Shown: positions 3,272 to 29,889 of the stretch, piece after piece
Position numbering within the stretch: the stretch's first letter is position 1
Layout: each line of letters begins with the position of its first letter
Assembly (NCBI GenBank): GCA_945901405.1
Contig: CAMDLH010000034.1
Span: 1 to 32,000 of the forward strand
Length of the DNA: 32,000 nucleotides
Reading direction: 5' to 3'
Source: Bordetella parapertussis
GTDB taxonomy: Bacteria; Pseudomonadota; Gammaproteobacteria; Burkholderiales; SG8-41
Made by a program: the position numbers and the translations under genes
The notes under the pieces: generated by a model
Database searches by the model: none
Seen by the model: only the letters and a program-made list of their open reading frames with translations
What the model was told of the DNA's origin: nothing

Positions 3272-3272
3272 G

Positions 3273-10590: not shown

Positions 10591-10625
10591 TATTGATCTT
10601 TCCAGTTCTTCCTTAATTGGCGGCA

Positions 10626-10659: not shown

Positions 10660-10682
10660 TGCGGCAACTTCGATTCGCCGCC

Positions 10683-10716
10683 CTGTCATTGTTTTGTAAC
10701 CGTCGTACGCAAGACT
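10683..10716 (+). promoter_or_regulatory. Pho-box-like promoter of the DUF1045-phnN operon
   Basis: CTGTCATTGTTTTGTAAC matches 13/18, followed by a 10-bp spacer and AAGACT. It lies about 50 nt upstream of ATG 10769. Confidence 0.45.
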
Positions 10717-10768
10717 GGTGCGCCACACAGAACTCGAGACACGCATGCTCGTCGAACAAAAGGAATCC

Positions 10769-16309: not shown

Positions 16310-19300
16310 ATGTCGCTATCAAACGTGGATCTGTCCACCTACGTACTGGTTGGTCAATACGACCTGCCCGAACCCACTCGCACCGCGGCGCCCGCCGACA
16401 GCTTGCTGGCGCAGGAAGTCTCGGCGGTGACTTACAACTGGGACACCGACACGTTGTTCGTGGTTGGTGATGGCGGCACATCGATCGTTCAGGTGACGAA
16501 GACAGGCGAGCTGATTAATTCGATGACTCTGGCGCCCGGCGGCAGTCCGCAGGGAACCGAGTTTTACGACACGGAGGGGCTGACCTATATCGGCAACGGC
16601 CAGTTTGTCATGATCGAAGAGCGGGATCGGCAGGCAGTGTTGTTCACCTACGAGGCCGGCGGCACGTTGACGCGCAGCGAAGCGCTTACCGTCGATCTGG
16701 GCACGTTCGTGCAAAACATCGGCATCGAGGGCATCTCTTATGATCCGTTAACCGGCGGATTTATCGCGGTCAAGGAGGCGCTTCCCGAAGGAATTTTTCA
16801 GACGGCCATCGATTTCGAGGCGGGTACCGCGACCAATGGATCATCCACCACCGAGAATTCAGTCAACCTGTTCAACCCGGTATTGCTCAACTTGTCGGAC
16901 TTTGCCGATGTCTTCGTGTTATCGAATTTGTCCGCCCTGAGCGGGCAGACCGATTACAGCCACCTGCTGGTATTGAGTCAGGAAGCGGGGGTTATTCTCA
17001 ACGTAGACCGTTCCGGCGTCATCTACAGTTCACTGACTATTACCTCGCCTGCCGGCAATCCCCTGACTGTTTCGGCCCAGCAGCACGAGGGCCTGACGAT
17101 GGACGCCAGCGGAAACCTGTATGTGGTCAGCGAGAACGGCGGCGGCGATTTTGATCACCCGCAGATCTGGGTCTACGCACCATCGTCGGTACCGAATCAG
17201 GCCCCAAGCGCGCTTGCGCTGACCAGTCCGGTCAATGCGATTGTAGAGAACACCAGCACGGCCACGCGGCTTAAGGTTGCCAATGTTGCGATCACCGATG
17301 ACGGTCTCGGCACGAATAACCTGACAGTATCAGGTGCAGACGCCGCCTTCTTCGAGGTTGACCGCAATGGCCTGTACCTCAAGGCCGGTACCATCCTCGA
17401 TTTCGAGACAAAGGCGAACTACAACGTCACCGTCAATGTCGATGACCCAGCGCTGGGCGGCACGCCGGATGCGAGTGCAAGCTTTGCGCTGGCGCTAACT
17501 GACGTTGCGGTGGAAACGCCACCCGTGCCCACGTTGATCATCTCCGAAGTCGCCCCGTGGTCCAGCGGCAATAGTCCGGTTGGCGCCGACTGGTTCGAGA
17601 TCACCAACACCGGCCAGATCGCCGTCAATATCAGCGGCTGGAAGATGGACGACAGTTCCAACTCTTTCGGCTCGGCGGTAACCCTGAACGGCATTACCAG
17701 CATCGCCCCCGGCGAATCGGTGATCTTCATTGAAACCAGCGATCTCGCAGGCAAGACCGCCGCTTTCCTGGCCAATTGGTTCGGCGCGAACCCGCCGGCG
17801 GGTCTGCACATCGGCAATTACTCCGGCGGGGGCGTCGGCTTGAGTACCGGCGGCGACGCCGTGAATCTGTTCAACGGCAGCGGCGTGCTCCAGGCCAACG
17901 TGGTTTTTGGCGCATCACCCGCGGGTCCATTCCCGACCTTCGATAACTGGGCGGGCATTAACAACGCGACGATTTCCCAACTGAGCGCGGCCGGCATCAA
18001 CAGCGGGTTCGTCGCGGCAAACGCGGCAAGTGAAGTCGGATCACCGGGAACGGCTGGCAAATTGTTTATCTCCGAAGTCGCGCCCTGGTCCAGCGGTAAT
18101 AGCCCCGTCGGCGCCGACTGGTTCGAGGTGACGAACACCACGGCTCGCGCGGTGAATATCAGCGGGTGGAAAATGGACGACAGCTCCGGTTCCCCTGCCG
18201 CCGCAGTCCCGCTGAGCGGCATTACCAGCATAGCGTCCGGTGAATCCGTCATCTTTATCGAAATGCCCGCCAGCGGCAATGCGGCCACCTACATCGCGAA
18301 TTTCAAGACGGTTTGGTTTGGCGACAACGCACCGGCGAACCTGCAAGTCGGCACTTATACTGGCGGCGGTGTCGGCCTGAGCACGGGCGGTGATGCGGTG
18401 AATCTCTACAACAGCGGCGGCGTGCTGCAGACCGGCATTTCCTTCGGCACTTCTCCCGCGGGCCCGCAGTTCGGAAGCTTTGACAATGCGGTTGCCTTGA
18501 GTGGCGTTGCCATTTCAAAACTCAGCGCTGTCGGGGTCAGCGGCGGATTCGCCGCGATCAACGATAACAACGAGATCGCCTCGCCGGGTGCGGTAGCAAC
18601 AGTGAATCAGGCGCCGGTGGCGGTTGACAACACGCTGTCGAGCATCGCCGAGGATTCCGGCCCCCGCACCATCAGCTTTGCCAGCCTGACGGCCAACGAC
18701 TCCAAGGGTTCGGTTACCGAAAACGCACAGAGCCTGACCATCATCGGCGTGAGCAACGCGGTTGGCGGTACCGTGAGCATCGCCGGAACGGACGTGATTT
18801 TCGCGCCGGCGCACAACTTCAACGGCCGTGCCAGCTTCGAATACACGGTGCAGGACAATGGCACGACGCGCAGCGTGAACAACTTCTTGAGCGACGCGGG
18901 CGCGGTAAGTTTCGACATTACGGCGGTCAACGACGCGCCGGAGGTTACACCCGCGACTTTTGACATAGCCGAGAATGACAGCGTGGCTGGCGTGGCGGCG
19001 GCCATCGATGCCGAGGGCGATGCTTTTACGTTTGCGCTGGAGGGCGGCGCCGATCAAGCCTTTTTCTCGATCGACGCCAATACGGGCGCGCTTTCCTTCA
19101 ACAACACACCCGATTTTGAAACGCCGGAAGACGCGGATAATGACAACACCTACGAAGTCCTGGTGGCGGCGACGGATATCTTCGGCGCCGTTGGCACGCA
19201 GACGATCAACGTCAAAGTCGGCGACGTGGTTGAGGCTGGTCTGGCCATTGACGGCGGCAACGGCAACGCTGTTCTGACGGGGGCCACCGGCAACGACACG

Positions 19301-19837
19301 ATCAACGGCGGAAACGGGAATGACTCGATTGGCGGCGGAGACGGTAACGATATCATCGGCGGCGGCAACGGTAACGACATTCTCGCCGGTGGCCGCGGCA
19401 ATGACATACTCAATGGCGGCAATGGCGAAGACACGCTGTCGGGCGGGGCGGGAATCGACAACCTGGGCGGCGGGCGCGGCAACGATTCCATTGATGGCGG
19501 CGCGGGTAGCGACATTCTTGCCGGCGGCAGCGGCATGGACACATTCAACTATCACGCCCTGGCGGATCGCGGCGCGGCGGGCGACGAGATCACCGATTTC
19601 GCCGCTGGCGCCGGCGGGGACGTGTTGAACCTTCACGACCTGCTGGACACGTTCTCCGGCATTGACGGCGGCACGCACGGCAATGCATTTAGCGGCGGCT
19701 TTGTGCGGTTTACCCAAGCGGGAAGCAACACCCTCGTTGAAGTCGATGGCAATGGCGGCGGCGACGCTTTCATCACCCTGGTGGGACTAACGAATACGGT
19801 ACTGGGGCAACACGATACCCAGAACTACATACTTTAA
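16310..19837 (+). CDS. Large RTX-type secreted protein with an N-terminal beta-propeller-like domain (SdiA-regulated/YjiK-type), cadherin-like modules, two lamin-tail domains (LTD), Ca-binding nonapeptide repeats and a T1SS C-terminal target domain
   Basis: 1175 aa. AGGAG lies 9 nt upstream of the ATG, and there is no N-terminal signal peptide. LTD signature ISEVAPWSSGNSPVGADWFE(I/V)TNT...NISGWKMDD occurs twice. GGNGNDxIxGG repeats span about 19247-19546. The tail GDEITDFAAGAGGDVLNLHDLLD resembles the VC_A0849-type T1SS signal. Confidence 0.85.
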   Translation: MSLSNVDLSTYVLVGQYDLPEPTRTAAPADSLLAQEVSAVTYNWDTDTLFVVGDGGTSIVQVTKTGELINSMTLAPGGSPQGTEFYDTEGLTYIGNGQFVMIEERDRQAVLFTYEAGGTLTRSEALTVDLGTFVQNIGIEGISYDPLTGGFIAVKEALPEGIFQTAIDFEAGTATNGSSTTENSVNLFNPVLLNLSDFADVFVLSNLSALSGQTDYSHLLVLSQEAGVILNVDRSGVIYSSLTITSPAGNPLTVSAQQHEGLTMDASGNLYVVSENGGGDFDHPQIWVYAPSSVPNQAPSALALTSPVNAIVENTSTATRLKVANVAITDDGLGTNNLTVSGADAAFFEVDRNGLYLKAGTILDFETKANYNVTVNVDDPALGGTPDASASFALALTDVAVETPPVPTLIISEVAPWSSGNSPVGADWFEITNTGQIAVNISGWKMDDSSNSFGSAVTLNGITSIAPGESVIFIETSDLAGKTAAFLANWFGANPPAGLHIGNYSGGGVGLSTGGDAVNLFNGSGVLQANVVFGASPAGPFPTFDNWAGINNATISQLSAAGINSGFVAANAASEVGSPGTAGKLFISEVAPWSSGNSPVGADWFEVTNTTARAVNISGWKMDDSSGSPAAAVPLSGITSIASGESVIFIEMPASGNAATYIANFKTVWFGDNAPANLQVGTYTGGGVGLSTGGDAVNLYNSGGVLQTGISFGTSPAGPQFGSFDNAVALSGVAISKLSAVGVSGGFAAINDNNEIASPGAVATVNQAPVAVDNTLSSIAEDSGPRTISFASLTANDSKGSVTENAQSLTIIGVSNAVGGTVSIAGTDVIFAPAHNFNGRASFEYTVQDNGTTRSVNNFLSDAGAVSFDITAVNDAPEVTPATFDIAENDSVAGVAAAIDAEGDAFTFALEGGADQAFFSIDANTGALSFNNTPDFETPEDADNDNTYEVLVAATDIFGAVGTQTINVKVGDVVEAGLAIDGGNGNAVLTGATGNDTINGGNGNDSIGGGDGNDIIGGGNGNDILAGGRGNDILNGGNGEDTLSGGAGIDNLGGGRGNDSIDGGAGSDILAGGSGMDTFNYHALADRGAAGDEITDFAAGAGGDVLNLHDLLDTFSGIDGGTHGNAFSGGFVRFTQAGSNTLVEVDGNGGGDAFITLVGLTNTVLGQHDTQNYIL
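17534..18589 (+). repeat. Tandem in-gene duplication of a 528-bp (176-aa) LTD-containing module
   Basis: Copy 1 is 17534-18061 and copy 2 is 18062-18589. Long identical stretches exist at DNA level, for example tctccgaagtcgc, ggcgccgactggttcgag and ggcttgagtaccggcggcgacgccgtgaatct versus ggcctgagcacgggcggtgatgcggtgaatct. Confidence 0.85.
19247..19546 (+). repeat. RTX nonapeptide (GGxGxDxUx) coding repeats
   Basis: About 10 consecutive units, for example GGNGNDSIG, GGDGNDIIG, GGNGNDILA and GGRGNDILN. Confidence 0.9.
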
Positions 19838-19951: not shown

Positions 19952-21190
19952 CTACGGGGCCGGCGACTGGTATAAGCCTGTTTCTTGAACTTCGTGCGTC
20001 TCACCCGTGCGCAAAATCGCCGCACGAAATACCGCTTCGGTGCGCTCCACGATCGCGTCCCACCCCTGCGCCAACGCGGCCTGCCGCGCGCGCAGCCGCA
20101 TCGAGTTTCTTAACGTGATGTCGCCCGCCACTTGCAGCGCGCCCGCTAGCAGCAGGTCCTCGCGGCCCGGCGACACCGCCAGTCCATTTTTTTGATTGCG
20201 TATCAGCTCATGCGCCGCGGCATGATCGTAGGCCACGACGGCCAGCCCGCTGGCCATGGCTTCGAGCGTGACGTTGCCAAAAGTCTCCGTCAGGCTCGGG
20301 AAGATAAACATATCCGCGCTGGCATAATGTTCCGCCAGGGATCGGCCGGTTTGAAAGCCGGCAAATACCGCATCGGGGCAATCGATCTGCAACTGCCGGC
20401 GCAAAGGGCCGTCTCCTACGATCACTAGTTTTACGCGTACCTGCGCACCGCGCAGCGAGTTGTAGCAGCGCACGACCGCCGCCAGATTTTTCTCAGCTGC
20501 CAGTCTGCCCACCGACAGGATTACGACTGTATCGGGCGCAGCGCCCCAGGATTTCCGCAGTTCAGCGGAATTTTGATACGGAGAGAATATTTTCGTGTCC
20601 ACGCCGCGCGGTACCACTGACAGTCTGTCGAACGCCATGCCCGCGAGTTCGCGCTTCAGTTGTTGGGTGGGAACCATCGTGCAATCGGCGTCGTTGTGAA
20701 ACTTTCGCATATAGGATTCAATCGCGCCCTTCAGCCAGCCGATACCATAAAACCGGCTATACGCATGGAAGTTGGTGCGAAAGTCGGTGCTCACCGGTAT
20801 TTGCAGCGAGCGCGCCGCTCGCAATGCAGACCATCCCAACGGCCCTTCCGTGGCAATGTGAACAATGTCGGGCCGCGCGGCCCGCCACAGGCGCCGCAAC
20901 TCACCGCCCGCGGGAAAACCCATCCTGAGTTGTTGGTACATGGGAATCGGTATCCCGCGTACCAATAGCTCCTGAAACCGGCCTCGACGTGCCGGCGTCT
21001 CGTTGTTGTGCTGCCGGGGGCGGACAAGGGTAAGTTCATGCCCCTTGGCCAGCAATCCCTCCACCACCTTTGACGTGGTGTGCGCGACTCCGTTGATATC
21101 CGGCGGATAGGTTTCCGTAACGAATGTGATGCGCAGTTTTTCGGCAGTTGCGAAGACGGAGCCGCGCCGCGTTTGAATGGGTGTGTTCAT
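19952..21190 (-). CDS. GT4-family glycosyltransferase, Agt-like candidate glycosyl-diacylglycerol synthase
   Basis: 412 aa counted from ATG 21190 (the ORF-track start 21199 is TTG). The N-terminus RITFVTETYPPDINGVAHT and C-terminal FPSLTETFGNVTLEAMASGL are typical GT-B/GT4 motifs. It is preceded by the best Pho box in the window. Confidence 0.8.
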   Translation of the reverse strand: MNTPIQTRRGSVFATAEKLRITFVTETYPPDINGVAHTTSKVVEGLLAKGHELTLVRPRQHNNETPARRGRFQELLVRGIPIPMYQQLRMGFPAGGELRRLWRAARPDIVHIATEGPLGWSALRAARSLQIPVSTDFRTNFHAYSRFYGIGWLKGAIESYMRKFHNDADCTMVPTQQLKRELAGMAFDRLSVVPRGVDTKIFSPYQNSAELRKSWGAAPDTVVILSVGRLAAEKNLAAVVRCYNSLRGAQVRVKLVIVGDGPLRRQLQIDCPDAVFAGFQTGRSLAEHYASADMFIFPSLTETFGNVTLEAMASGLAVVAYDHAAAHELIRNQKNGLAVSPGREDLLLAGALQVAGDITLRNSMRLRARQAALAQGWDAIVERTEAVFRAAILRTGETHEVQETGLYQSPAP

Positions 21191-21197
21191 GCACGGC

Positions 21198-21231
21198 AAT
21201 TTAAAGGACTTTCACGACAGACATATGACAG
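21198..21231 (-). promoter_or_regulatory. Pho box promoter of the GT4 gene
   Basis: Minus strand reads CTGTCATATGTCTGTCGT (16/18 to CTGTCATAWAWCTGTCAY). A 10-bp spacer GAAAGTCCTT and TAAATT follow. The ATG lies only 7 nt after the -10. Confidence 0.65.
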
Positions 21232-21291
21232 CGAATTTCCGCGCACCGGCACGGGCCTTGGGCGCGCGCGAATGGGTAAATGGACTTCCTT

Positions 21292-21336
21292 TTGTCAAGG
21301 AAACGTCATCAAACTTTCATGTTTACCAGACATATT
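21292..21336 (+). promoter_or_regulatory. Triple-half-site Pho-box promoter of the 4-TM membrane protein gene
   Basis: TTGTCAA-ggaa-ACGTCAT-caaa-CTTTCAT has three heptamers at exact 11-bp phasing. A 10-bp spacer and CATATT (21331-21336) follow. Confidence 0.55.
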
Positions 21337-21414
21337 GCCCGGCTATTGACGTTTCCTTTGTTGGTGTTTTCCGATTGAAGTCAGTAGTACCTACCCATTA
21401 ATCAGGGAGTCCGC

Positions 21415-22023
21415 ATGAAAAATCTGATGGATACATTGCGCGTTCAGCGCTGGGACGATCACCGTTATTATCACCACAGCAGAATCAATCAGGCGCTGCA
21501 TCTCATCAGCGCTATTTCATTCCTGGTTTCGTATGTCTATCTTTTCATAGACCCGGTGATCGCGGCACTGGTGGCGTGGCTGGTCGCCATGACCACGCGG
21601 CAGGCCGGGCATTTCTTTTTTGAACCCAAGTGTTACGATGAGGTCAATCAGGCGACCCACGAACACAAGGAACGCATCAAGGTCGGCTACAACCTGCACC
21701 GCAAGCTGGTGCTGCTGGGCATCTGGATCATGATTCCCCTGGTGGCGTATTTCTGGCCCGCCTATATCACCTGGGCCGTGCCAGAAAAATACGAGGACAC
21801 GACAGCACGCATTGTCGGCATGGCGTGGCTGCTGCTCGGCATCGCGGGACTGCTGTTTCGCGCGGGGCAGGTGTGGCTGAATGACCGCTTCGAGAGCGCG
21901 CTGGCGTGGGTGCTTAAGATCCTCACTGATCCATTTCACGACATCAAGTTATACCATCGCGCACCGCTGCAACTGCTGCGCGGCGAGTGGATGGACCCCA
22001 TGTCGCATGTGCGGCCTCATTGA
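21415..22023 (+). CDS. Hypothetical 4-TM membrane protein with His-rich motifs (possibly Mpo1/DUF962-like)
   Basis: 202 aa, with GGGAG 6 nt upstream of the ATG. Has four hydrophobic helices. HHSRINQALH and AGHFFFEP loosely resemble the DUF962 motifs HxxxxNxxxH and GHxxxExxxP. This assignment is tentative. Confidence 0.6.
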   Translation: MKNLMDTLRVQRWDDHRYYHHSRINQALHLISAISFLVSYVYLFIDPVIAALVAWLVAMTTRQAGHFFFEPKCYDEVNQATHEHKERIKVGYNLHRKLVLLGIWIMIPLVAYFWPAYITWAVPEKYEDTTARIVGMAWLLLGIAGLLFRAGQVWLNDRFESALAWVLKILTDPFHDIKLYHRAPLQLLRGEWMDPMSHVRPH

Positions 22024-23691
22024 TCATGCCGCCATGCGCGCGCGCAGCATTTCTTTCAATACCTGCCGGCGGATGGTCTTGTTGGTCTGGCCTTGGGGTG
22101 CCCACCACCATCCCTCGGCGGACATCTGCTGCGCCGCACGCGCGAATCGCGTGCAGAATTCCTCGTAGTCTTGTTCGTCAAAATTGAGACTGAAAATCAG
22201 GCGCCCGCTCCCCACCCAGCTAAGTGCGATGCCGTGGCGGCGCAGATAGAACTGGAAGAGCCAGTTGTAGCGCGCCGGTTTCGTGAACAATACTGTCCAC
22301 ACCGTCGACATCGCCGCCACCCGCACTGGCAGGTCTTCGCGATCCAGCCGCTGGTTAAGCTGATCCGCGCGAGCGTGCCAGAGTGCATCGATATTTTCAT
22401 AGAGCGCTTTTACTTGTGGCGACTCCAGGCGCTGCAGAAACTCATTCATGGCGCCCATCACGTAAGGATGGGCGTTGAAGGTGCCGCGCGCAAAGCAAAT
22501 ATCGGCGGGGCGTTCATTGCCGAATCTGCGCATGAGGTAGGCCTTGCCGCAAAGCACGCCCACCGGCAGCCCGCCGCCGAGTGTCTTGCCATAGGTTACA
22601 AGGTCGGCCCGCACGCCGAAGTATTCCTGCGCACCGCCGCGCGCGAGCCTGAATCCCAGAAACACTTCATCAAAAATGAGCACGATGCCGCGCTCGCTGC
22701 AAACCTTGCGAAGCGCTTCCAGCCAGTGAGTGTAGGCAACACGGTGGAATGCCGCACTGCGTGCGCTATCCACCAGCGTCGAATCCGTCGGCGCCGGGCG
22801 GTTCGGATGCAGGGCTTGCAACGGATTGACCAGCACACAAGCGATGTCGCGGCGGTTACGCAAAACGCGCAATGTCGAATCATGCATCTCGCGCAGCGTG
22901 AACGTTTGACTGGCGGGCGGCAGCGGGTTGCCGGGGCCGGGCTGCACATCGTCCCACCAGCCGTGGTAGGCGCCGGTAAAGCGCACCAGTTGAGTACGGC
23001 CCGTGTGATAGCGCGCAAGCCTTACAGCCTGCATGACGGCCTCCGTGCCGGACATGTGAAACGACACTTCATCCATGCCCGATATGGCGCGCAGCCGTGT
23101 CACGTTATCCAGCACGCACGGATGATACGAACCCAGCGCCGGCCCCAACTCGCGAACACGTTGCGCACCCTCGTCAATACAGGATTTATAGAAATCCAGT
23201 CCAAACAGATTGACGCCGTACGACCCGGTGACATCGATAAACCGGTTGCCGTCCATGTCCATAAGCCAAACGCCGTCACTCTTGTTCCAGTAGCTGCCGA
23301 TACGCAGGTGTTGCTGCAACACCTCGCGAAACTGAAACGGCACGCGGTAGCTGCTGATGAACTGCAAATCCGAAATCATCGGCTTGCTGGCGTCGGTATG
23401 TGCCAGCGTGAGCGGACTCTGGTTGCGCAAGCCGGCGCCAAGTTCCTTGAGTGCGTGGCGCCGCTGATTGGCAATATCGGCGGGCGCGCCGTCGGTGGTG
23501 AACCACTGCCCGTCCTCATACGCATAGCCCGGAACCCAGCGTGCCATGCGCTGCGCCCAGCGCACGTGCCCTGTCAGAGATGGATATTTTGCAAAGGACA
23601 ACTCGATACGTTGCTTGATTCTCCGCAGCACGTATACAGCGGCTGGCAACAAGACAATGAGTACGGCAATTAATACTGTTGACTCAGGCAT
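22024..23691 (-). CDS. Membrane-anchored class-III (HemL/GSA-aminomutase-like) PLP-dependent aminotransferase with a roughly 170-aa N-terminal extension
   Basis: 555 aa counted from ATG 23691. Has an N-terminal TM helix [17 protein letters not shown]. The PLP-lysine region [22 protein letters not shown] matches HemL [38 protein letters not shown] is typical of the fold. Confidence 0.8.
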   Translation of the reverse strand: [555 protein letters not shown]

Positions 23692-23719
23692 GGCATTCGT
23701 CCCCGGAAAACCTATGTCT

Positions 23720-23737
23720 ATGACAAATTTATGAAGA
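23720..23737 (-). promoter_or_regulatory. Pho-box-like site between the aminotransferase and psd starts
   Basis: Minus strand reads TCTTCATAAATTTGTCAT (14/18). It lies 28 nt upstream of the aminotransferase ATG and ends 2 nt from the psd ATG on the opposite strand. No good -10 sits at the canonical 10-bp spacing (TAGGTT lies 5 bp away). Confidence 0.3.
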
Positions 23738-23738
23738 A

Positions 23739-24611
23739 ATGATGAAAATCCGGGAATTGGCGCAAAAACTCGCTTTACAGGAAGACCTGAATTTCCTCCT
23801 GAGCAACCGCATTCCCCGGCTCGCGGCAACCCACTTCATGGGCTGGTTCAGCCAGATTCGCCAGCCCTGGGTATGCAGCGCGTCTATTGCGGCATGGAAA
23901 GTTTTTTCCGATCTGGACCTGAGTGAGGCGCGAAAACAGAAGTTCGACAGTCTTCACGACTGCTTCGTGCGCGAACTCGTTGCCGGCGCACGCACGCCCG
24001 ACCCCGATCCGAACATACTGGTCAGTCCCTGCGATGGCATCGTCGGCGCCTGCGGTCAGGTCGAGGGCGGCAACGTATTCCAGGCGAAGGGATTTCCCTA
24101 CAGCTTGAATGATCTCTTCGGCAATGAACACGCCGCGCGGCCTTGGCATGACGGCGTCTACGTGACCGTGCGTATCACTTCGGCGATGTACCACCGGTTT
24201 CACGCGCCCTATCGCGGGACAATGCGGCAAGTGCGCTACATCGCGGGCGATACTTGGAACGTAAATCCGATCGCGCTCAAGCGCGTTGAAAAATTATTCT
24301 GCAAGAATGAGCGGGCGGTGCTGTCGCTTGAGATTGGAGCGCAACGCTATCCCGTGGCGCTGGTTCCCGTGGCGGCGATCCTGGTGGGGGGAATTCGCCT
24401 GCACGGACTGGACACGCTGTTTCACACGCGTTACGGCGGCCCCACGGATTTTAGTTGCACGGTTGATTTTGACAAAGGCGATGAACTGGGCTGGTTTCAG
24501 CATGGCTCCACGATTCTGCTGTTCGCGCCCAGGGGGTTTCGTCTGGCGGATCAAATTGCGCTTGGCGCGCGCGTCAAGGCGGGCCAGATACTGATGCGCC
24601 TACCCGGCTGA
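23739..24611 (+). CDS. psd: Phosphatidylserine decarboxylase proenzyme
   Basis: 290 aa. Collinear with E. coli Psd: DPNILVSPCDG, YHRFHAPY, and the self-cleavage motif FQHGSTILLF (G-S-T). Confidence 0.9.
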   Translation: MMKIRELAQKLALQEDLNFLLSNRIPRLAATHFMGWFSQIRQPWVCSASIAAWKVFSDLDLSEARKQKFDSLHDCFVRELVAGARTPDPDPNILVSPCDGIVGACGQVEGGNVFQAKGFPYSLNDLFGNEHAARPWHDGVYVTVRITSAMYHRFHAPYRGTMRQVRYIAGDTWNVNPIALKRVEKLFCKNERAVLSLEIGAQRYPVALVPVAAILVGGIRLHGLDTLFHTRYGGPTDFSCTVDFDKGDELGWFQHGSTILLFAPRGFRLADQIALGARVKAGQILMRLPG

Positions 24612-24676
24612 AACGCACCCGCGATCCGACGCAAATTTCAATCTTGAAGCCCGCGCGGACAGCAATGCCGCCGCGT

Positions 24677-24710
24677 ATGTCACAAGAGCTTCATGCTAGT
24701 CCGGGACAAT
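24677..24710 (+). promoter_or_regulatory. Pho-box-like promoter of ugd
   Basis: ATGTCACAAGAGCTTCAT matches 12/18, followed by a 10-bp spacer and GACAAT. It lies about 50 nt upstream of ATG 24759. Confidence 0.4.
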
Positions 24711-24758
24711 CCCCATCGTTGCTTCAACTCCACTTTCTTGATCGCGGAGGCGTCATAC

Positions 24759-26189
24759 ATGCGAATTACTGTCATAGGCACGGGATACGTAGGGCTGGTA
24801 ACGGGAACTTGTCTCGCCGAATTGGGTAACGCGGTGGTTTGCGTTGATCTGTCCGTGGACAAAATCCATGGTCTCAATCATGGTGTGGCGCCAATACACG
24901 AGCCCGGTCTGGAAGACATGATTCAGCGCAACAAGGGGCCGGGCCGCATCAGTTTCACCACGGATATCGAGGCGGCGATCACGCACGGCGAGGTCGTGTT
25001 TATCGCAGTCGGCACGCCACCACTGGAAAGCGGCGGCGCCGACACACGATACGTACTCGCGGCGGCACGCGATATCGGACGTTGGATGAACGAATTTAAA
25101 GTGGTCGTCAACAAGTCCACTGTTCCCGTCGGAACAGCCGATCAGGTCAAGGCCGCGATAAGCCAAGAGTTGCACGCGCGCGGTTTCCTCGGCGCCCCCG
25201 CCCAGGAGCGCCTGTCGTTCTCGGTGGTGTCCAATCCGGAGTTTCTGAAGGAGGGCGCGGCAATTGAGGATTTCATGCGCCCGGACCGGATCGTGCTGGG
25301 CGCGGGTGACAACGAGCCGGATCAACGCGCCCTGGCCACCATGCGAATACTTTACTCGCCGTTTAACCGGCATCATGAGCGCACGCTGGTCATGACCAAT
25401 CGCGCGGCGGAACTCACCAAGTATGCCGCCAATGCGATGCTGGCAACTCGCATCTCGTTCATGAACGAATTGGCCAACCTTGCGGAACGGGTGGATGTGG
25501 ATATCGAGTCGGTACGCCAGGGTATTGGGTCCGACCCGAGAATCGGCTACAGCTTTCTCTATGCGGGCGCCGGTTGTGGCGGGTCGTGCTTTCCCAAGGA
25601 TGTGCGGGCTTTGCAACAGACCGCCAGGGAAAATGGAACGAGCATGCGCGTGCTGGAGGCGGTAGACAGTGTGAATCAGCAGCAAAAGCGCAGAATCCTT
25701 GAAAAGGTGCACGCACATTTCGGCGAGGATTTGCGCGGACTGACCATCACCGTCTGGGGCCTGGCCTTCAAGCCCGACACAGACGATGTGCGCGAAGCGC
25801 CCAGCAGAATCGTGATCACGGGGTTATTGAAACGCGGCGCCTGCGTGCGCGCTCACGACCCGGTGGCCAATCACGCCGCGCGCACGGCGCTGCAAGATGA
25901 TTTGATAGACAGCAAACATCTATGGCCGCGCATGGAATTTTTCGCGGATGCCAGCGACGCGCTGCAAGGCGCGGATGCGCTGGTCATCATGACCGAGTGG
26001 AAATCGTTCCGCAGCCCAAGCTTCGCCACGCTGAAGAAATCACTGTCGGCCCCGGTGATTTTTGACGGGCGCAATCTGTTTGAACCGAAGGTGATGGCGG
26101 GCGAAGGGTTCGTCTATCACGGTATTGGACGCGTCGGTTTGCCCGCCGGCTCGCGCCTCGCGCTGGTTAAGCGGCCGCTAGCGGCTTAG
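24759..26189 (+). CDS. ugd: UDP-glucose 6-dehydrogenase
   Basis: 476 aa counted from ATG 24759, with GCGGAGG 8 nt upstream. Has the Rossmann motif [16 protein letters not shown] and the catalytic region GGSCFPKD. Confidence 0.9.
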
Positions 26190-26201
26190 GTATCATTTAC
26201 C

Positions 26202-26867
26202 TTGCACCGCTATTTCTGTTTGAACTCAAACGCACGATGGCCCTGGATCGTGCGCGCCATCGCACCGCTGCCGGCACGGAGAATTGCCTGCATTGCGGCC
26301 ATGGTGTTTACTCAATCCGCGCTGATGGGATCCCCGGGCGGATACGTTCACGCCGCCGAGATTGCGGGGGTTCGCGTCGCTCCGGATGCCCGCGTCGCGG
26401 ACGTCGATCTCGTGCTCAATGGCGCTGGTCTGAGGCGTCTTTTCAGGGCTAACGTTTACGTCATCGGATTGTATTTTCCACAGCGTACGAACTCCGCGGA
26501 GTCTGCGTTCAATGGCGCCGGGCCAAAACGAATCGCGCTCACCTTCATGCGCGAAGTCACCGCGCAATCGCTTGTCGACGCGCTGTTTGAAGGCGTGCGC
26601 GATAACTCAAGCGAAGCGGAATTTGCAAAATTGAAAGCTTCCGCCGATACGCTGTCGGCGATCATGCTGCCGCTCAAAGTCGCAAAAAAAGGCGATATCG
26701 TCGCGCTCGATTACCTGCCGAACACGGGCGCGCAGGTAGTCATGAACGGGCGCGTAATAGGAAAGCCTGTTCCCGGCCATGATCTGTATCGTGCCTTGCT
26801 CAGAATCTGGTTGGGAGATTCTCCTGTCGATGCCAATCTGAAGCGCGAGTTATTGGGACAAGGGTAG
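26202..26867 (+). CDS. Chalcone-isomerase-like family protein (periplasmic, putative lipid/fatty-acid binding)
   Basis: LVLNGAGLRRLFRANVYVIGLYFP is typical of the bacterial Chalcone_3-type family. It lies 12 nt after ugd. The start is uncertain (TTG 26202, or the internal GTG giving MRAIAPLPARRIACIAAMVF..HA as a signal peptide). Confidence 0.65.
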   Translation: MHRYFCLNSNARWPWIVRAIAPLPARRIACIAAMVFTQSALMGSPGGYVHAAEIAGVRVAPDARVADVDLVLNGAGLRRLFRANVYVIGLYFPQRTNSAESAFNGAGPKRIALTFMREVTAQSLVDALFEGVRDNSSEAEFAKLKASADTLSAIMLPLKVAKKGDIVALDYLPNTGAQVVMNGRVIGKPVPGHDLYRALLRIWLGDSPVDANLKRELLGQG

Positions 26868-26879: not shown

Positions 26880-26913
26880 GCTTCATGAATCCGTAATCCA
26901 GCGCTTGCATAAT
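26880..26913 (+). promoter_or_regulatory. Pho-box-like promoter of the secreted metallophosphoesterase
   Basis: GCTTCATGAATCCGTAAT matches 12/18, followed by a 10-bp spacer and CATAAT (5/6 to TATAAT). Confidence 0.45.
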
Positions 26914-26934
26914 GTATCGGTGAACTATAATTTT

Positions 26935-27906
26935 ATGTTTAAAAACAATTACTTACGATTAGCGGGCATGGCGGTGGCCATTGCATTGGCGGCCCCGCAG
27001 GTTTCAGCCCCGGCGGCGGCGGAACGCTTCAGTTTCGCCGCCATAGGAGACATGCCCTACGCGCTACCCGGCGATTTTGAGCGCTTTGCCCGGCTCATCG
27101 AGCGTATTAACACCGCACACCCCGCCTTCACCATTCACGTCGGGGATTTCAAACCCGGAAACTCGCGCTGTGGCGATGAACACTTCGCAAAAATTTCGGA
27201 TATGTTCGAGACATTTGACGCGCCGCTCATTTACACACCTGGAGACAACGAGTGGACTGATTGTCATCGAGCCGACAATGGCGGGTTTGATCCCCTCGAA
27301 CGGCTCGGCAAGGTGCGCGAGCAGTTTTTTCCCAATCCGGCGCAAAGCCTCGGCCGCGACAAAATCGCGCTCGAGCATCAAGGCACTGATACGCGTTACT
27401 CCGCCTATATCGAAAACCGCCGCTGGGAACGCGCGGGCGTGTTGTTCGCCACCCTGCATATCGTCGGCAGCAATAACAACTTGCAAAGAGACCATGTGGC
27501 GGTCAATGAGTACATCGCGCGCAATGTCGCCAATCTGGCGTGGATGCAGGCAACGTTTGAAAGCGCCCGCAAGCGCAACGCGAAAGCCGTAGTGCTGGCG
27601 TTTCAGGCAGATCTGCGCTGGGAGTTAAATGCCAGCGAACAACAACGCGCGGGCTTTACCGACACGTTGACCGCTTTGCGGCGACATGCGCGCGCGTTCG
27701 GCAAACCGGTGTTGGTTGTGCATGGCGACCGGCACCGCTTTGTCGTCGATAAGCCGCTCTACGAGAACCGTCAACTGATTTACAACGTGACACGATTGAT
27801 GGTTTTCGGCGCAACTGAAGTTCAGGGGGTCATGGTACATGTGGACACCGAAGACCCCGATGTGTTCAGCTTTCGCCCGCTGACGGCTCCGGAAAACATT
27901 CGGTAG
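26935..27906 (+). CDS. Secreted calcineurin-like metallophosphoesterase
   Basis: 323 aa counted from ATG 26935, with signal peptide MFKNNYLRLAGMAVAIALAAPQVSAPAAA. Has the motifs IGDMPY, HVGDF, PGDNEW and VHGDRH. Confidence 0.8.
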   Translation: MFKNNYLRLAGMAVAIALAAPQVSAPAAAERFSFAAIGDMPYALPGDFERFARLIERINTAHPAFTIHVGDFKPGNSRCGDEHFAKISDMFETFDAPLIYTPGDNEWTDCHRADNGGFDPLERLGKVREQFFPNPAQSLGRDKIALEHQGTDTRYSAYIENRRWERAGVLFATLHIVGSNNNLQRDHVAVNEYIARNVANLAWMQATFESARKRNAKAVVLAFQADLRWELNASEQQRAGFTDTLTALRRHARAFGKPVLVVHGDRHRFVVDKPLYENRQLIYNVTRLMVFGATEVQGVMVHVDTEDPDVFSFRPLTAPENIR

Positions 27907-28038: not shown

Positions 28039-29889
28039 TTAACTACCTATCACACCGCCATCGTTCTTGCGTATGACCAACGTCGCCGAACGCGGCCGTC
28101 CGCCCGATGCGCCATCGGGCCACGAACTCACTGCCTTGGGCGCTTTCGGATTGCTGCGTTCGCTCGCGGTTTCGCCAGGATGCTGAATGTTGACGAACAT
28201 GGTGCGGCCGTCGGGCGTGGTGATGACACCCGTCACCTCGCAGCCGGCGGGGCCGGTGAGAAAGCGCCTGATCTCGCCGGTGCGTATATCCGCTGCCAGC
28301 ATCTGATTGTTGCCCATGCGCTCGTAATCGCCTTTGTGCATGGCGCTGGTCGAGACGTCGGTTTGTATCCATAAAATACCCCCGTCATCAAACCATAATC
28401 CATCCGGACTGCCGAACGCGTCACCATTGATATTGCCGCGCTTGGCCGGATCAGAATGTCGCGGATCGCCCGCCAGCACGAAAATGTCCCAATTGAATTT
28501 CAGCGCAGCCGGATCGTTGCCCAGCTCACGCCAACGGATAATGTGTCCGAAGGTATTGTTGGAACGCGGATTGGCCGCATTCAAGCCGGGAACTTGCGGC
28601 GTGCCTCGGCACGCGTTGTTGGTGAGCGTGCAATACACCTCGTTGGTGCCGGGGTGAACCGCGATCCACTCGGGGCGGTCCATTTTGGTGGCGCCGACGG
28701 CATCCGCCGCCGCGCGCGTGCGCACCAGCACGTCGGCCTGATCCCTGAAACCGCCCGCTGGAGTCAGCTTGTTCTTGCCGAACGTGAGTTCGACCCACTC
28801 GCCGCCGCCGTCTTCGTGAAACTTCGCGACGTAAAGCGTGCCATGATCGAGCAGATTGCGATTGGCATTGCGGTCGTTCGGGTTCCACGCATCGCGCGAC
28901 ACGAACTTGTAGATGTACTCGAACTGACGGTCATCCCCCATGTACAACGTGACACGGCCATCGCGCCCCACCGCCGGCCATGCGCCTTCGTGACTAAAGC
29001 GCCCTAGCGTCGTGCGCTTGACCGGCGTGGATCGCGGATCGTACGGATCGACCTCGACCACCCAGCCGAAGCGGTTGGGCTCGTTGGGATGTTTGCCCGC
29101 ATCGAAACGCTCGTCGAATTCATGCCAACGATAACCGCGGCCTTTTTCCCGCACGCCGTTGCGCCGCTGGTCCTCGGTGATTGCGCCGGAATTGACGAAA
29201 TAACCGTCCCAGTTTTCCTCGCATGTGAGATAAGTGCCCCAAGGCGTATACCCGTGCGCGCAATTGTTGATGGTGCCCAAACACTCGGCGCCGGTTGCAT
29301 CCGCGGCCGTGCGCAAGTACGGCGATCGCGCCGCCGGCCCGGAAAGCGTCATTGGCGTGGCCGCCGTGATACGCCGCGCGAAACGTGACGGACGCACCAC
29401 TTCCCAGCGCCCGTCCCGCGCGCGCACTTCCACTACGGACATGCCATGCGCGTTTTGCGATTTGCGGACTTTCGCCGCACTCCAGTTGGCAAACGCGTCC
29501 GTATGCAACAGGCCGTCGTCGGTATACTCGTGATTGATCGCAAGCAATGCGCTGCTACTACTGGCGCTTCCAAGGGGCAGCGGGAAGTAATGCACGCTGT
29601 CGTGATGCATGCCGGCTTGCAACGCCTGATCCTCGGCGCTGTTACTCGCATCCTGCCGAAACGCCGGCGACCCGGACGCGTGCCCGATCGGATCGCCCCA
29701 CGCGAGCAACACCCTCGCGTTGTAACCCTCGGGCACCCGCACCATGTCCGCGGCGGACCCGGCGACGCTCTTGAATCCCAACGTGCCTTCGCGCTTTAAT
29801 CCGCCGCTCGCGCAACCCGCCAACGACAGCGGCAATGCGCCGGCGGCCGCGAACGAGGCGGCGCCTTTGAGCAGTTCGCGGCGCGACAA
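28039..29889 (-). CDS. phoX: Tat-secreted alkaline phosphatase PhoX
   Basis: 616 aa. Has the twin-arginine signal SRRELLKGAASFAAAGA and the PhoX motif NNCAHGYTPWGTYLTCEEN. The apparent start is TTG (no in-frame ATG upstream). Confidence 0.9.
   Translation of the reverse strand: MSRRELLKGAASFAAAGALPLSLAGCASGGLKREGTLGFKSVAGSAADMVRVPEGYNARVLLAWGDPIGHASGSPAFRQDASNSAEDQALQAGMHHDSVHYFPLPLGSASSSSALLAINHEYTDDGLLHTDAFANWSAAKVRKSQNAHGMSVVEVRARDGRWEVVRPSRFARRITAATPMTLSGPAARSPYLRTAADATGAECLGTINNCAHGYTPWGTYLTCEENWDGYFVNSGAITEDQRRNGVREKGRGYRWHEFDERFDAGKHPNEPNRFGWVVEVDPYDPRSTPVKRTTLGRFSHEGAWPAVGRDGRVTLYMGDDRQFEYIYKFVSRDAWNPNDRNANRNLLDHGTLYVAKFHEDGGGEWVELTFGKNKLTPAGGFRDQADVLVRTRAAADAVGATKMDRPEWIAVHPGTNEVYCTLTNNACRGTPQVPGLNAANPRSNNTFGHIIRWRELGNDPAALKFNWDIFVLAGDPRHSDPAKRGNINGDAFGSPDGLWFDDGGILWIQTDVSTSAMHKGDYERMGNNQMLAADIRTGEIRRFLTGPAGCEVTGVITTPDGRTMFVNIQHPGETASERSNPKAPKAVSSWPDGASGGRPRSATLVIRKNDGGVIGS

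Follow-up and report, generated by a model that had tools for sequence, protein, structure and literature searches.

[quoted passage not shown] However, that pathway has no counterpart of the two proteins that always accompany the glycosyltransferase GT4 here, the aminotransferase AT and the membrane protein TM4. GT4 itself forms a separate clade, being about 31% identical to the Agt-type enzymes of PlcP-Agt operons in the same genomes, as against 45-49% to its Methylomirabilota orthologs. The Ugd-ArnA-ArnB route to 4-amino-4-deoxy-L-arabinose is similar in logic only: a uronate becomes an oxidised, decarboxylated keto sugar and then an amino sugar, adding positive charge to a membrane lipid, and ugd is likewise a recurrent neighbour of the module. 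The Arn steps act on a nucleotide sugar, with ArnA being an NAD-dependent dehydrogenase and ArnB a DegT-family aminotransferase, whereas the module has an Mpo1-like membrane protein and a membrane-anchored class-III enzyme, and no ArnC/ArnT-type transferases. The ring-ketone sugar aminotransferases known to us belong to the DegT/ArnB family and not to class III.

The gpgSDF system of P. aeruginosa, producing GlcN-phosphatidylglycerol, and hexSDF of C. difficile, producing aminohexosyl-hexosyl-diradylglycerol (PMC12713373), share a plan in which a GT4-type lipid glycosyltransferase, a tailoring enzyme and a putative flippase yield an amine-bearing sugar lipid; an LplT-like MFS protein is a frequent neighbour of the module. 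There, the amine arrives already in place on GlcNAc and a deacetylase exposes it, and Pho regulation has not been reported, whereas the module has no deacetylase and its oxidase-like protein and transaminase would create the amine de novo. A carbonyl-forming step coupled or fused to a class-III transaminase is found in MycA (KS-AMT, 6kfm), NeoQ/NeoN (neomycin) and GenB (gentamicin). These are soluble enzymes of secondary metabolism, while AT has a transmembrane helix and a membrane-bound Mpo1-like partner. The MycA AMT domain acts on a beta-ketoacyl thioester, that is, on a lipid-chain carbonyl rather than a sugar.

The block lies within the window, the whole 32,000-nucleotide stretch analysed, which also contains btaA-btaB-plcP, a C-P lyase operon, PhoX and phosphonate transporters and so bears out the phosphate-starvation lipid-remodelling setting proposed in the initial annotation. 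Six genes occupy positions 19952-26867: GT4 faces leftwards, TM4 and AT converge, and psd, ugd and a chalcone-isomerase-like gene follow rightwards. Pfam profile searches confirmed all six identities given earlier, and identical public gene calls confirmed the starts of AT, TM4, GT4 and ugd. The earlier grouping of all six into one module did not hold: GT4, TM4 and AT are linked in two phyla and form the conserved core, while psd is lineage-specific, ugd is accessory and the chalcone-isomerase-like gene is never co-located. As judged from sequence, this core is a phosphate-starvation unit kept from freshwater Burkholderiales to Methylomirabilota, and it usually adjoins a PlcP-type phospholipase C gene.

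TM4 (21415-22023, forward strand; 202 aa) is a His-rich membrane protein of the Mpo1-like/DUF962 type. It scores 22.3 bits against PF06127, just under the cut-off of 24 bits, and all 20 tested members of its family match this profile. The invariant residues comprise H16, H20, H29, H66, H175 and H198 together with a GHFFFE motif, and the AF2 model is all-helical (pLDDT 86, pTM 0.80). The sole characterised enzyme of the family, the yeast 2-hydroxy fatty acid dioxygenase Mpo1 (PF06127/DUF962), catalyses the oxidative decarboxylation of an alpha-oxygenated carboxylic acid, and its only known chemistry concerns free 2-hydroxy fatty acids, not sugars (PMC10398889). TM4 and its fused homologs share with it a His/Asn-rich N-terminal motif and GHxxFE, and TM4 is likewise a small polytopic membrane protein, but it extends about 100 residues further at the C-terminus, where more invariant His and Asp occur. 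We know of no characterised bacterial member of the family; TM4 is predicted to be an Fe/O2-dependent oxidase.

AT (22024-23691, reverse strand; 555 aa) is a membrane-anchored class-III PLP aminotransferase (PF00202, 127 bits), whose start is supported by a 100% identical protein (P0001). It is HemL-like but, at 179 bits, falls far below the hemL equivalog cut-off of 527 in NCBIfam. A transmembrane helix followed by RRIKQR forms the N-terminus, and alignment to solved relatives places the PLP lysine within TYGKTLGGGLPVG. Of the solved structures, the amine-transferase domain of mycosubtilin synthase MycA matches it best (6kfm, E 6e-54, 186 bits), with GSA aminomutases ranking behind (E about 4e-39, 138 bits); class-III sugar C-6' aminotransferases are also detectable, and no phospho-lyase occurs among the 60 listed solved relatives. 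Features specific to the family are a 100-residue N-terminal region (Y-x-Y/F...FF-x-ADGA) and a C-terminal GWW motif.

The stop codons of TM4 and AT abut at 22023/22024, and the two genes are convergent neighbours in 68 of 68 Burkholderiales loci. In Methylomirabilota they form one polypeptide, with TM4 fused to the C-terminus of AT. Such fusions fall into four separate 50%-identity clusters (P0246, P0284, P0295 and P0308); residues 591-746 of P0246 align to residues 11-180 of TM4 (34% identity, E 6e-20), and the Mpo1-like domain of P0295 scores 38.6 bits, above the cut-off. An artefact of assembly or gene calling is unlikely, given 78 members in the P0246 cluster and over 100 clusters of similar length. 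The invariant adjacency and the fusions argue that AT and TM4 work together.

The third core gene, GT4 (19952-21190, reverse strand; 412 aa), contains Glyco_transf_4 (96 bits) and Glycos_transf_1 (95 bits) Pfam domains. Its best NCBIfam matches are GlcNAc-PG synthase GpgS (138 bits against a cut-off of 480, so that GT4 is not GpgS) and MGlcDAG synthase (101 bits, also below cut-off), and GT4 is predicted to be a lipid (diacylglycerol) glycosyltransferase. Weak NCBIfam matches to EPS and teichuronic-acid glycosyltransferases were also observed. GT4 flanks TM4 divergently in 55 of 60 Burkholderiales loci; in all five Methylomirabilota neighbourhoods a GT4 gene, 45-49% identical to that of the window in the four with DNA, stands directly upstream of the AT-TM4 fusion, and in three (L082, L083 and L085) its stop overlaps the fusion start. 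This linkage in both phyla indicates that GT4 belongs with AT and TM4.

The window also encodes a PlcP-like metallophosphoesterase of the phospholipase C type (4043-4867, forward strand; Metallophos domain), the last gene of btaA-btaB-plcP, which is LpxH-like in NCBIfam but below the cut-off and is the predicted supplier of diacylglycerol. Of the 29 Burkholderiales loci that have at least 8 kb on both sides of the module, 20 carry a PlcP ortholog no more than 10 kb away from it. PlcP orthologs also adjoin the module in three of the five Methylomirabilota neighbourhoods, including orthologs of 47-49% identity immediately downstream of the fusion in L085 and after an intervening PEMT gene in L081. 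The unit is followed by this PEMT-family gene in L081 and by a SAM methyltransferase gene in L085. Other neighbours are OlsB-like (frequent), Agt-like, BtaA-like, DgkA and LplT-like genes, the last adjoining most Burkholderiales loci but absent from the Methylomirabilota version. The initial annotation linked PlcP to GT4 and Ugd only, a view that did not hold, as PlcP accompanies the GT4-AT-TM4 unit as a whole. A diacylglycerol context is suggested by the PlcP orthologs in both phyla, by the lipid-enzyme neighbours and by the membrane-lipid glycosyltransferases that are the nearest families of GT4.

The ugd gene (24759-26189, forward strand; 476 aa) encodes a UDP-glucose 6-dehydrogenase with three UDPG_MGDP_dh domains (TIGR03026 score 422, above the cut-off of 190), the probable supplier of UDP-glucuronate. 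It occurs no more than 10 kb from the module in 17 of 80 loci, where it takes at least four arrangements, and is missing from the majority of loci and from the Methylomirabilota neighbourhoods. It is present, however, in all six loci in which a GT4 ortholog was undetected and an Agt-type glycosyltransferase stands beside psd; four of these extend far enough past TM4 to show that GT4 is truly absent. The recurrence of ugd, its constant presence where an Agt-type enzyme stands in for an undetected GT4 and the decarboxylation precedent of Mpo1 point to glucuronate as the sugar. The adjacent Chalcone_3 gene (26202-26867, forward strand; PF16036, 149 bits) has no homolog in the 80 related Burkholderiales loci or in the Methylomirabilota loci and was rejected as a module member.

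The gene psd (23739-24611, forward strand) encodes a canonical phosphatidylserine decarboxylase proenzyme (PF02666, PS_Dcarbxylase, 184 bits; TIGR00163 score 143, above the cut-off of 112), which aligns to E. coli PSD (6l06/7cnw, 117 bits) at the CDG Asp and the YHRFH His and has the self-cleavage motif GST in FQHGSTI. It is divergent from AT in 73 of 73 Burkholderiales loci but absent from all five Methylomirabilota neighbourhoods, and was therefore placed outside the core chemistry.

The pattern KTCAY-N6-KTCAY occurs six times in the window against 0.82 expected, a number reached in none of 100 shuffles, and five matches are correctly oriented and close to the 5' end of a gene; sites precede phnG (10642, reverse), TM4 (21305, forward), AT (23720 and 23731, reverse) and ugd (24679, forward). 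The predicted Pho box of GT4 (21214-21231, reverse strand; CTGTCATATGTCTGTCGT) is the best match in the window to the E. coli-type consensus CTGTCAT-N4-CTGTCAT (13/14), and related loci keep a counterpart of this box (TGTCATCGAACGGTTAT / CTTCATCAAACTGTTGC) ahead of GT4. TM4 is preceded by three predicted half-sites spaced by 11 bp (21292-21320, forward strand; TTGTCAA-GGAA-ACGTCAT-CAAA-CTTTCAT); related loci have a conserved TGTCA..N..TTCAT element directed at TM4, and 55 of 73 pattern sites in the TM4/GT4 spacer are on the TM4 strand. The predicted array of AT comprises three boxes (23720-23746, reverse strand; TTTCAT-N5-CTTCAT-N5-TGTCAT), the first overlapping the ATGATG start of psd (23739-23744). 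Aligned spacers of related loci contain the same array, always directed at AT and always over the psd start codon, and the strict pattern has at least one site in the psd/AT spacer of 50 of 73 loci, all 88 sites being on the AT strand. In related loci the psd/AT spacer reaches a pattern density of 17.6/kb and the TM4/GT4 spacer one of 6.6/kb, against 0.12/kb in the remaining 1.2 Mb. The site of ugd (24679-24694, forward strand; GTCACAAGAGCTTCAT) lies 65 bp upstream of the ATG at 24759. Thus, of the Pho boxes ascribed earlier to every unit, those at the 5' ends of GT4, TM4, AT and ugd were recovered, but no correctly oriented KTCAY-N6-KTCAY site of its own was found for psd in the window. In Zwartia the module adjoins phoU-phoB, which, together with the conserved, correctly oriented arrays, suggests Pho control of the core. 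The ORF beside phoB there resembles phoR, as judged by eye.

We tentatively read the core, with a confidence just short of even, as an extension, under PhoB control, of the PlcP/glycosyltransferase route of lipid renovation that would give an amine-bearing glycolipid. The gene identities, conserved linkage, fusions, overlap of adjacent genes and conserved Pho boxes are observed here; from them we infer each catalytic step, the acceptor lipid, the sugar, the position of the amine and the reciprocal regulation of psd. During phosphate starvation PlcP would cleave phospholipids to diacylglycerol, to which GT4 would add a sugar on the cytoplasmic side of the membrane, in the likeliest case glucuronate supplied through Ugd, or else possibly glucose. 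TM4, with Fe(II) and O2, would then generate a carbonyl on the sugar head group. It might oxidise a hydroxyl or, as ArnA does, decarboxylate the uronate oxidatively; a pyranosyl uronate decarboxylated directly at C5 would become an unstable hemiacetal, which counts against the latter. Membrane-tethered AT would convert the carbonyl to a primary amine. The phosphorus-free product could stand in for phosphatidylethanolamine. Besides the instability of that hemiacetal, the route has against it the confinement of known Mpo1 chemistry to free 2-hydroxy fatty acids, the beta-ketoacyl thioester substrate of the best characterised relative of AT, the DegT/ArnB membership of known ring-ketone sugar aminotransferases and the lack of ugd in most loci and in the Methylomirabilota neighbourhoods. 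An amine on the lipid is suggested by MycA AMT as the nearest solved relative, by the detectable sugar C-6' aminotransferases and by the methyltransferase genes 3' of the unit. The amino-modified head group envisaged in the initial annotation is thus favoured by the fusions, the upstream or overlapping GT4 and the PlcP orthologs of the second phylum, the product itself remaining conjectural. For the invariant psd-AT linkage the only explanation at hand is a regulatory conjecture: the three predicted PhoB boxes, which would drive AT, lie over the psd start and may lower PE synthesis as the surrogate switches on. No paper describing such a GT4-TM4-AT system was found, and the route, if real, is probably an undescribed phosphorus-free aminoglycolipid pathway.

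The target of AT and TM4 might instead be an acyl chain or some other lipid carbonyl outside the sugar, with GT4 acting elsewhere or on a separate lipid; for example, a 3-oxoacyl group or an aldehyde derived from alpha-oxidation would yield an amino-acyl or alkyl-amine lipid. The closeness of AT to the amine-transferase domain of MycA, at 186 bits compared with 138 for GSA aminomutase, agrees with this, since that domain puts an amine on a beta-ketoacyl chain; so do the fatty acid substrate of Mpo1 (PMC10398889) and the frequent OlsB-like N-acyltransferase genes. Yet it leaves unexplained why an orthologous GT4 always immediately precedes the fusion, with an overlap in three loci, and why an Agt-ugd pair replaces an undetected GT4. 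Moreover, genes for acyl carriers, ligases or reductases do not accompany the unit, and we regard this alternative as unlikely. That the unit decorates a surface glycan or lipid A/LPS with an Ara4N-like cationic group, rather than a membrane glycerolipid, appears quite unlikely. A GT4, Ugd and an aminotransferase are often combined in O-antigen, EPS and lipid A modification pathways, in keeping with the weak matches of GT4, and Pseudomonas is known to give its envelope cationic modifications when Pi is short (PMC8528852, PMC12713373). However, no neighbourhood contains a polyprenyl-phosphate transferase, Wzx/Wzy, ArnT/ArnC-like or LPS gene, the recurrent neighbours (PlcP, OlsB-like, BtaA-like, DgkA, LplT-like) are glycerolipid enzymes, and AT is of class III and not DegT/ArnB.

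The constant psd and the LplT-like genes adjacent in most Burkholderiales loci, together with the reversibility of transaminases, could also be taken as signs of catabolism, in which psd, AT and TM4 would take apart the head groups of aminophospholipids (PS to PE to aldehyde, then cleavage) and help to free phosphate, LplT importing lyso-lipids. Ethanolamine-phosphate phospho-lyase, which frees phosphate from phosphoethanolamine, has the class-III fold. The Methylomirabilota version nevertheless dispenses with psd and LplT while keeping GT4 and PlcP, AT is much closer to HemL and AMT-type enzymes, with no phospho-lyase among its 60 listed solved relatives, PlcP already removes the head group and the Pho array is directed at AT rather than psd, which makes such a role very unlikely. 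Finally, the window is a mosaic of Pho-type genes, and the separate promoters and the lack of an operon in Burkholderiales would suit independent Pho-regulon genes lying side by side in a phosphate island, with GT4 as an ordinary Agt-like glycolipid synthase, a housekeeping psd and unrelated AT and TM4. This is highly improbable, being already disfavoured by the AT-TM4 fusions in several lineages; in addition, the GT4 gene runs into that of the fusion, linkage of the three genes persists in two phyla between copies of 32-50% identity, and their order and orientation are invariant in 55-73 loci.

Pfam and family searches of the window bore out the identities that the initial annotation had given to six adjacent genes. 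These encode a lipid-type glycosyltransferase (GT4, 19952-21190, minus strand), a His-rich helical membrane protein of 202 aa whose sole family match is Mpo1-like/DUF962 (TM4, 21415-22023, plus strand), a class-III aminotransferase of 555 aa with an N-terminal transmembrane helix (AT, 22024-23691, minus strand), phosphatidylserine decarboxylase (psd, 23739-24611, plus strand), UDP-glucose 6-dehydrogenase (ugd, 24759-26189, plus strand) and a Chalcone_3 protein (26202-26867, plus strand). The starts of AT, TM4, GT4 and ugd were fixed by sequence-identical public gene calls. The stop codons of TM4 and AT abut, and GT4/TM4 and AT/psd form divergent pairs.

AT belongs to the class-III aminotransferases (PF00202, 127.2 bits against a cut-off of 30.5), and its PLP lysine, located in TYGKTLGGGLPVG, is aligned with the corresponding lysine of MycA and GSAM. 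The score against the HemL equivalog TIGR00713 (178.6 bits) is far under the cut-off of 527.3, and the automatic name 'glutamate-1-semialdehyde aminomutase' found in some sources is therefore unjustified. Among solved structures, AT comes closest to the amine-transferase domain of mycosubtilin synthase (E 6e-54), which aminates a beta-ketoacyl chain; GSA aminomutases come next (E ~4e-39), followed by weaker relatives among the class-III sugar C-6' aminotransferases, GenB and NeoN. A function of AT as a phosphoethanolamine or phosphatidylethanolamine (PE) phospho-lyase was considered and rejected, as no such enzyme is among the matches listed (60 solved relatives) and this activity would also leave GT4 unexplained.

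TM4 matches PF06127 with 22.3 bits, under the Pfam gathering cut-off of 24; the same model is matched at E <= 0.01 by all 20 of the TM4 family members tested, and the Zwartia ortholog is named DUF962 in UniRef. Six histidines, H16, H20, H29, H66 (in the motif GHFFFE), H175 and H198, are invariant, as are several acidic residues (Asp, Glu). The AF2 model of TM4 is confident (pLDDT 86), and a Foldseek comparison of it with the PDB returned nothing better than E 0.4, that is, no solved structural relative. TM4 may be an Mpo1-like enzyme of the Fe/O2 type, the activity expected of the family being Fe2+-dependent dioxygenation of a 2-hydroxy acid. The best named relatives of GT4 are membrane-lipid glycosyltransferases, namely the GlcNAc-PG synthase GpgS and MGlcDAG synthase, all scoring below the cut-offs. 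The psd product is canonical (TIGR00163, 143.4 bits against 111.75; Pfam PF02666, 184.5 bits), with CDG and YHRFH motifs, carrying the catalytic Asp and His, that align with E. coli PSD, and a G-S-T self-cleavage site in FQHGSTI. The ugd product falls in the nucleotide-sugar dehydrogenase family (TIGR03026, 422.5 against 189.8), while its score against the TuaD equivalog, 466, is under the cut-off of 700, so that its substrate specificity is a prediction.

A scan with AT, taking one genome per species, recovered 487 relatives, and synteny was analysed around the best 80 of these 487. All of the best 80, which are 62-73% identical to the window AT, come from freshwater Burkholderiales, including Limnohabitans, Rhodoferax, Zwartia, Sheuella and many MAGs. 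Wherever the contig was long enough the local order in these loci is invariant: AT and psd are divergent in 73/73 loci, AT and TM4 convergent in 68/68, and TM4 and GT4 divergent in 55/60. Neighbours were counted at the 29 loci whose contigs extend 8 kb or more on both sides. The most frequent are a PlcP-type metallophosphoesterase gene (20/29, within 10 kb), an LplT-like MFS transporter gene (18/29) and an OlsB-like N-acyltransferase gene (11/29), followed by PPK2 (8/29), ugd (7/29), an Agt-type GT4 (5/29), phoB/phoU (5/29), DgkA (3/29) and BtaA-like genes (3/29). Chalcone_3 was found at none of the 29 loci. Counted over all 80 loci, 17 have ugd, which takes up at least four different positions, and it occurs in 6/6 loci where the GT4 ortholog was undetected and an Agt-type glycosyltransferase adjoins psd.

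The PPK2 polyphosphate kinase gene near the module often lies between GT4 and ugd; its carriers are the loci L016-L018, L028, L030, L036, L040, L043, L049, L056, L075 and L080. At three Comamonadaceae-type loci (L029, L036 and L040) a BtaA-like DUF3419 gene (341 bits) and dgkA come after psd in the same orientation, as at L040:7282-9938 (minus strand), and none of the three has a btaB-like methyltransferase gene beside these genes.

An exhaustive search with AT revealed proteins in which the Aminotran_3 domain is followed by an Mpo1-like domain (P0284, P0295 and P0308); in P0295 the fused Mpo1-like domain scores 38.6 bits, above the cut-off. P0246 represents a cluster of 78 members from Methylomirabilota/Rokubacteria MAGs, and its residues 591-746 are 34% identical to residues 11-180 of TM4 (E 6e-20); more than 100 further clusters share its length. 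AT and TM4 are thus one protein in several lineages. Positively charged residues follow the transmembrane helix, and the AT C-terminus is fused to the TM4 N-terminus, which suggests, judged by sequence, that the AT catalytic domain and the His-rich N-terminal motifs of TM4 face the cytoplasm.

Five distinct neighbourhoods of the fusion genes were retrieved from Methylomirabilota. In all five a GT4 gene is located immediately upstream of the fusion, and the four with DNA available for comparison encode GT4s with 45-49% identity to that of the window; at three loci (L082, L083 and L085) the GT4 stop overlaps the fusion start. A PlcP gene is adjacent in 3/5 neighbourhoods, the two copies with DNA (L081 and L085) being 47-49% identical to the window PlcP, a Metallophos-domain protein encoded at 4043-4867. 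One fusion locus runs on into a phosphonate transporter and phnGHIJ. A PEMT-family gene follows the fusion at one locus, and at another (L085) PlcP is followed by a SAM methyltransferase gene, which is not BtaB-like. Genes for psd, ugd, LplT and Chalcone_3 are absent from all five neighbourhoods.

Of the six-gene module initially proposed, GT4, TM4 and AT, joined by PlcP, are kept together, while Chalcone_3 drops out with its 0/29 loci. Both ugd and psd lie outside the shared core: they accompany the genes in Burkholderiales (17/80 and 73/73 loci, respectively) and are missing from the Methylomirabilota neighbourhoods. The evolutionarily retained unit is PlcP, GT4, TM4 and AT in a phosphate-stress setting.

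A strict scan for the E. coli Pho-box consensus (CTGTCAT-N4-CTGTCAT, at least 11/14 matches) recovered the GT4/TM4 spacer alone, including CTGTCATATGTCTGTCGT at 21214-21231 (minus strand), and missed the AT and ugd sites. It was replaced by phylogenetic footprinting together with a looser pattern of 11-bp period, KTCAY-N6-KTCAY. The aligned spacers of the 80 related loci contain conserved 11-bp-periodic (T/G)TCA(T/C) repeats, arranged as one element per direction in the TM4/GT4 spacer and as three boxes in the psd/AT spacer, which always face AT and of which the first always overlaps the psd ATG. In these loci the looser pattern has 88 matches within the psd/AT spacer, every one of them on the AT strand, which amounts to 17.6 per kb; the TM4/GT4 spacer has 6.6 per kb and the other 1.2 Mb 0.12 per kb. 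In the window itself six sites were observed, with 0.82 expected and none of 100 shuffles reaching six, and 5/6 are found shortly before a gene: one each for phnG, TM4 and ugd, and two for AT. These five sites, taken with the GT4/TM4 spacer, make PhoB sites plausible at GT4, TM4, AT and ugd. No Pho-box-like site belonging to psd itself was found in the window. Induction by Pi limitation, which along with a Pho-box promoter characterises the PlcP-Agt pathway, would be predicted from such conserved Pho-box-like arrays.

The start codons of psd and AT are 41-86 bp apart in the 80 related loci and 47 bp apart in the window (23692-23746). The spacer is mostly filled by the three boxes, which cover the psd ATG; the leaders of psd and AT must therefore be very short, or else their promoters lie within the adjoining coding sequence. 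PhoB bound to the boxes might repress psd while activating AT, and since the presumed AT-activating array sits on the psd start, PE synthesis could drop as a PE surrogate is made. We conjecture that the invariant linkage of psd in Burkholderiales is best read as regulatory.

GT4, TM4 and AT probably belong, together with PlcP, to a single unit for lipid tailoring under phosphate stress. In the simplest mechanism consistent with the linkage, PlcP would yield diacylglycerol, which GT4 would convert to glycosyl-diacylglycerol; TM4 would then introduce a carbonyl on the head group, and AT would turn this carbonyl into an amine. That the product is an amino-glycosyl-diacylglycerol is put forward tentatively, at slightly under even chances, and any specific sugar or amine position carries low confidence. 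An amine product agrees, though weakly, with the N-methyltransferase genes found after the unit at two loci of Methylomirabilota.

The recurrent ugd and the chemistry of the Mpo1 family point to a glucuronosyl-diacylglycerol intermediate. The only characterised enzyme of this family oxidatively decarboxylates an alpha-oxygenated carboxylic acid (PMC10398889), and the route would amount to a Ugd/ArnA/ArnB-like logic performed on the lipid. A direct Mpo1-type C5 decarboxylation of pyranosyl glucuronate by TM4 is not a step to which we commit, because its product would be a labile hemiacetal releasing diacylglycerol. Alternatively, C-6 of a hexose could be oxidised and then aminated, as in NeoQ/NeoN, a route that fits the class-III family of AT better than the glucuronate route does. 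The psd-btaA-like-dgkA operons of L029, L036 and L040 prompted a further idea, in which psd would decarboxylate BtaA-made diacylglyceryl-homoserine; routes to a DGTA-like lipid were weighed as well. Psd as a pathway enzyme was downgraded, since it is missing from every Methylomirabilota neighbourhood while GT4, AT, TM4 and PlcP persist.

Tailoring by TM4 and AT can be extended to a wider reading, possible but somewhat less probable than the amino-glycosyl-diacylglycerol product itself. A membrane-bound two-step 'oxidise then transaminate' machine, in which an Mpo1-like Fe/O2 enzyme is coupled to a class-III aminotransferase or fused with it, would install the primary amine on the head group of the glycolipid itself. 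The resulting, previously unrecognised class of phosphorus-free amino-glycolipids would replace PE in phosphate-starved cells of abundant freshwater Burkholderiales (Limnohabitans, Rhodoferax, Zwartia), Methylomirabilota and possibly euglenids. In Burkholderiales a single PhoB-bound region would act as a toggle that lowers psd, and with it PE synthesis, while raising the surrogate pathway.

Among known systems, the module works like the PlcP-Agt pathway (PMC4796936, PMC8528852) in pairing a PlcP-type metallophosphoesterase with a glycosyltransferase encoded with or near it. That pathway, which yields MGDG or GADG, has no counterpart of the TM4/AT tailoring pair, and its glycosyltransferase is of a different clade from the module GT4. 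Agt1/Agt2 are 35-41% identical to the Phaeobacter Agt (PMC8528852); the module GT4 is 29-34% identical to the Agt-type GT4s of the PlcP-Agt operons at the same loci, which stood in for characterised Agt, and groups with its own orthologs, 45-49% identical across phyla; by this comparison it is not an Agt ortholog. The amine-bearing glycolipids of gpgSDF and hexSDF arise from GlcNAc via deacetylation and not transamination (PMC12713373); the module GT4 scores 138 bits against a cut-off of 480 for the GlcN_PG_synth model, and no deacetylase gene was found in any neighbourhood. Unlike ArnB of the Arn (Ara4N) system, which is a DegT enzyme, AT belongs to class III, and no ArnA-like gene is present in the block. 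No description of a GT4-TM4-AT module was found in the literature, and both its enzymology and its lipid class may well be new.

For bacteria of waters and soils, exchanging phospholipids for lipids free of phosphorus is a major adaptation. The surrogates include glycolipids made via PlcP-Agt, betaine lipids via BtaAB, and ornithine/glutamine lipids via OlsBA/OlsF; to our knowledge only a handful of such lipids and enzymes have been described. The proposed pathway, if true, would add a branch in which a glycolipid is tailored to bear an amine, would give bacterial DUF962/Mpo1-like proteins their first functional context, and would bring in a large subfamily of aminotransferases mis-annotated as 'HemL-like'. 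Because some of the most abundant bacterioplankton of fresh water are among the carriers, a lipid class that has gone unrecognised could affect lake lipidomics, the accounting of phosphorus and the interpretation of biomarkers. Surrogate lipids of other kinds change susceptibility to cationic antimicrobials and phage, and a cationic or zwitterionic glycolipid could do likewise.

Among the AT-related proteins, P0249 from Euglena mutabilis (EukProt) has an AT-subfamily aminotransferase joined to an N-terminal region with sub-threshold GT2 matches (22.4 and 21.8 bits, cut-off 23.3) and with no sequence relative in the PDB; it gives only a hint of an aminotransferase-glycosyltransferase fusion. 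The AT subfamily, marked by an N-terminal FF-x-ADGA region and a C-terminal GWW motif, is represented in P0249/P0407 (the Euglena transcriptome entry and metagenome relatives), where it bears long multi-TM N-terminal extensions and, in two proteins, a sub-threshold GT2-like domain. The metagenomic P0248, P0250, P0254, P0263, P0272 and P0278 are eukaryote-like in appearance. In the Methylomirabilota locus L081 (12263-17738), genes for PEMT, a PlcP-like protein, phosphonopyruvate decarboxylase (TPP enzyme), a class-V aminotransferase and PEP mutase come after the GT4/AT-TM4 unit; the last three make up a set for 2-aminoethylphosphonate biosynthesis, next to a lipid unit that spares phosphate.

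Outside the block the window forms an island of phosphate-starvation genes: btaA (DUF3419), a methyltransferase gene, the PlcP-like gene, the C-P lyase operon phnGHIJKLM, two ABC systems for phosphonate, a TAT-signal PhoX and an RTX/T1SS protein of 1175 aa that has a phytase-like domain. The co-directional btaA (370 bits), btaB-like SAM methyltransferase (ORF 3027-4046, start uncertain) and PlcP-like metallophosphoesterase genes at 2066-4867 (plus strand), 15 kb away from the block, resemble an operon for the betaine lipid DGTS that includes a phospholipase C of its own. The 1175-aa protein (16310-19837, plus strand) combines an SdiA-regulated/phytase-like beta-propeller, two lamin-tail domains, cadherin-like/Big_9 repeats, RTX repeats and a type-I-secretion C-terminal signal, and is probably secreted for organophosphate scavenging or adhesion; a single Pho-like pattern match (17018, plus strand) lies inside its gene. 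Between the Chalcone_3 gene and PhoX, a 333-aa protein with a signal-like N-terminus (26905-27906, plus strand) has metallophosphoesterase-type motifs visible by eye only (GDMPY, HVGDF, TPGDNEW), no Pfam or NCBIfam match and no homolog in the 80 related loci. Of the two PhoX-type genes, 227-1291 and 28039-29889 (both minus strand), one encodes the full-length TAT-signal PhoX (592 bits) and the other a 354-aa ORF with a weak partial match (30 bits), possibly a divergent beta-propeller phosphatase. The phnG ORF (region 10560-10830) could start at 10830 (239 aa), but its PhnG domain begins only at residue 91; a Pho-box-pattern site on the same strand (10642-10657, minus) indicates that the true start is probably further downstream and that the box lies in the phn promoter.
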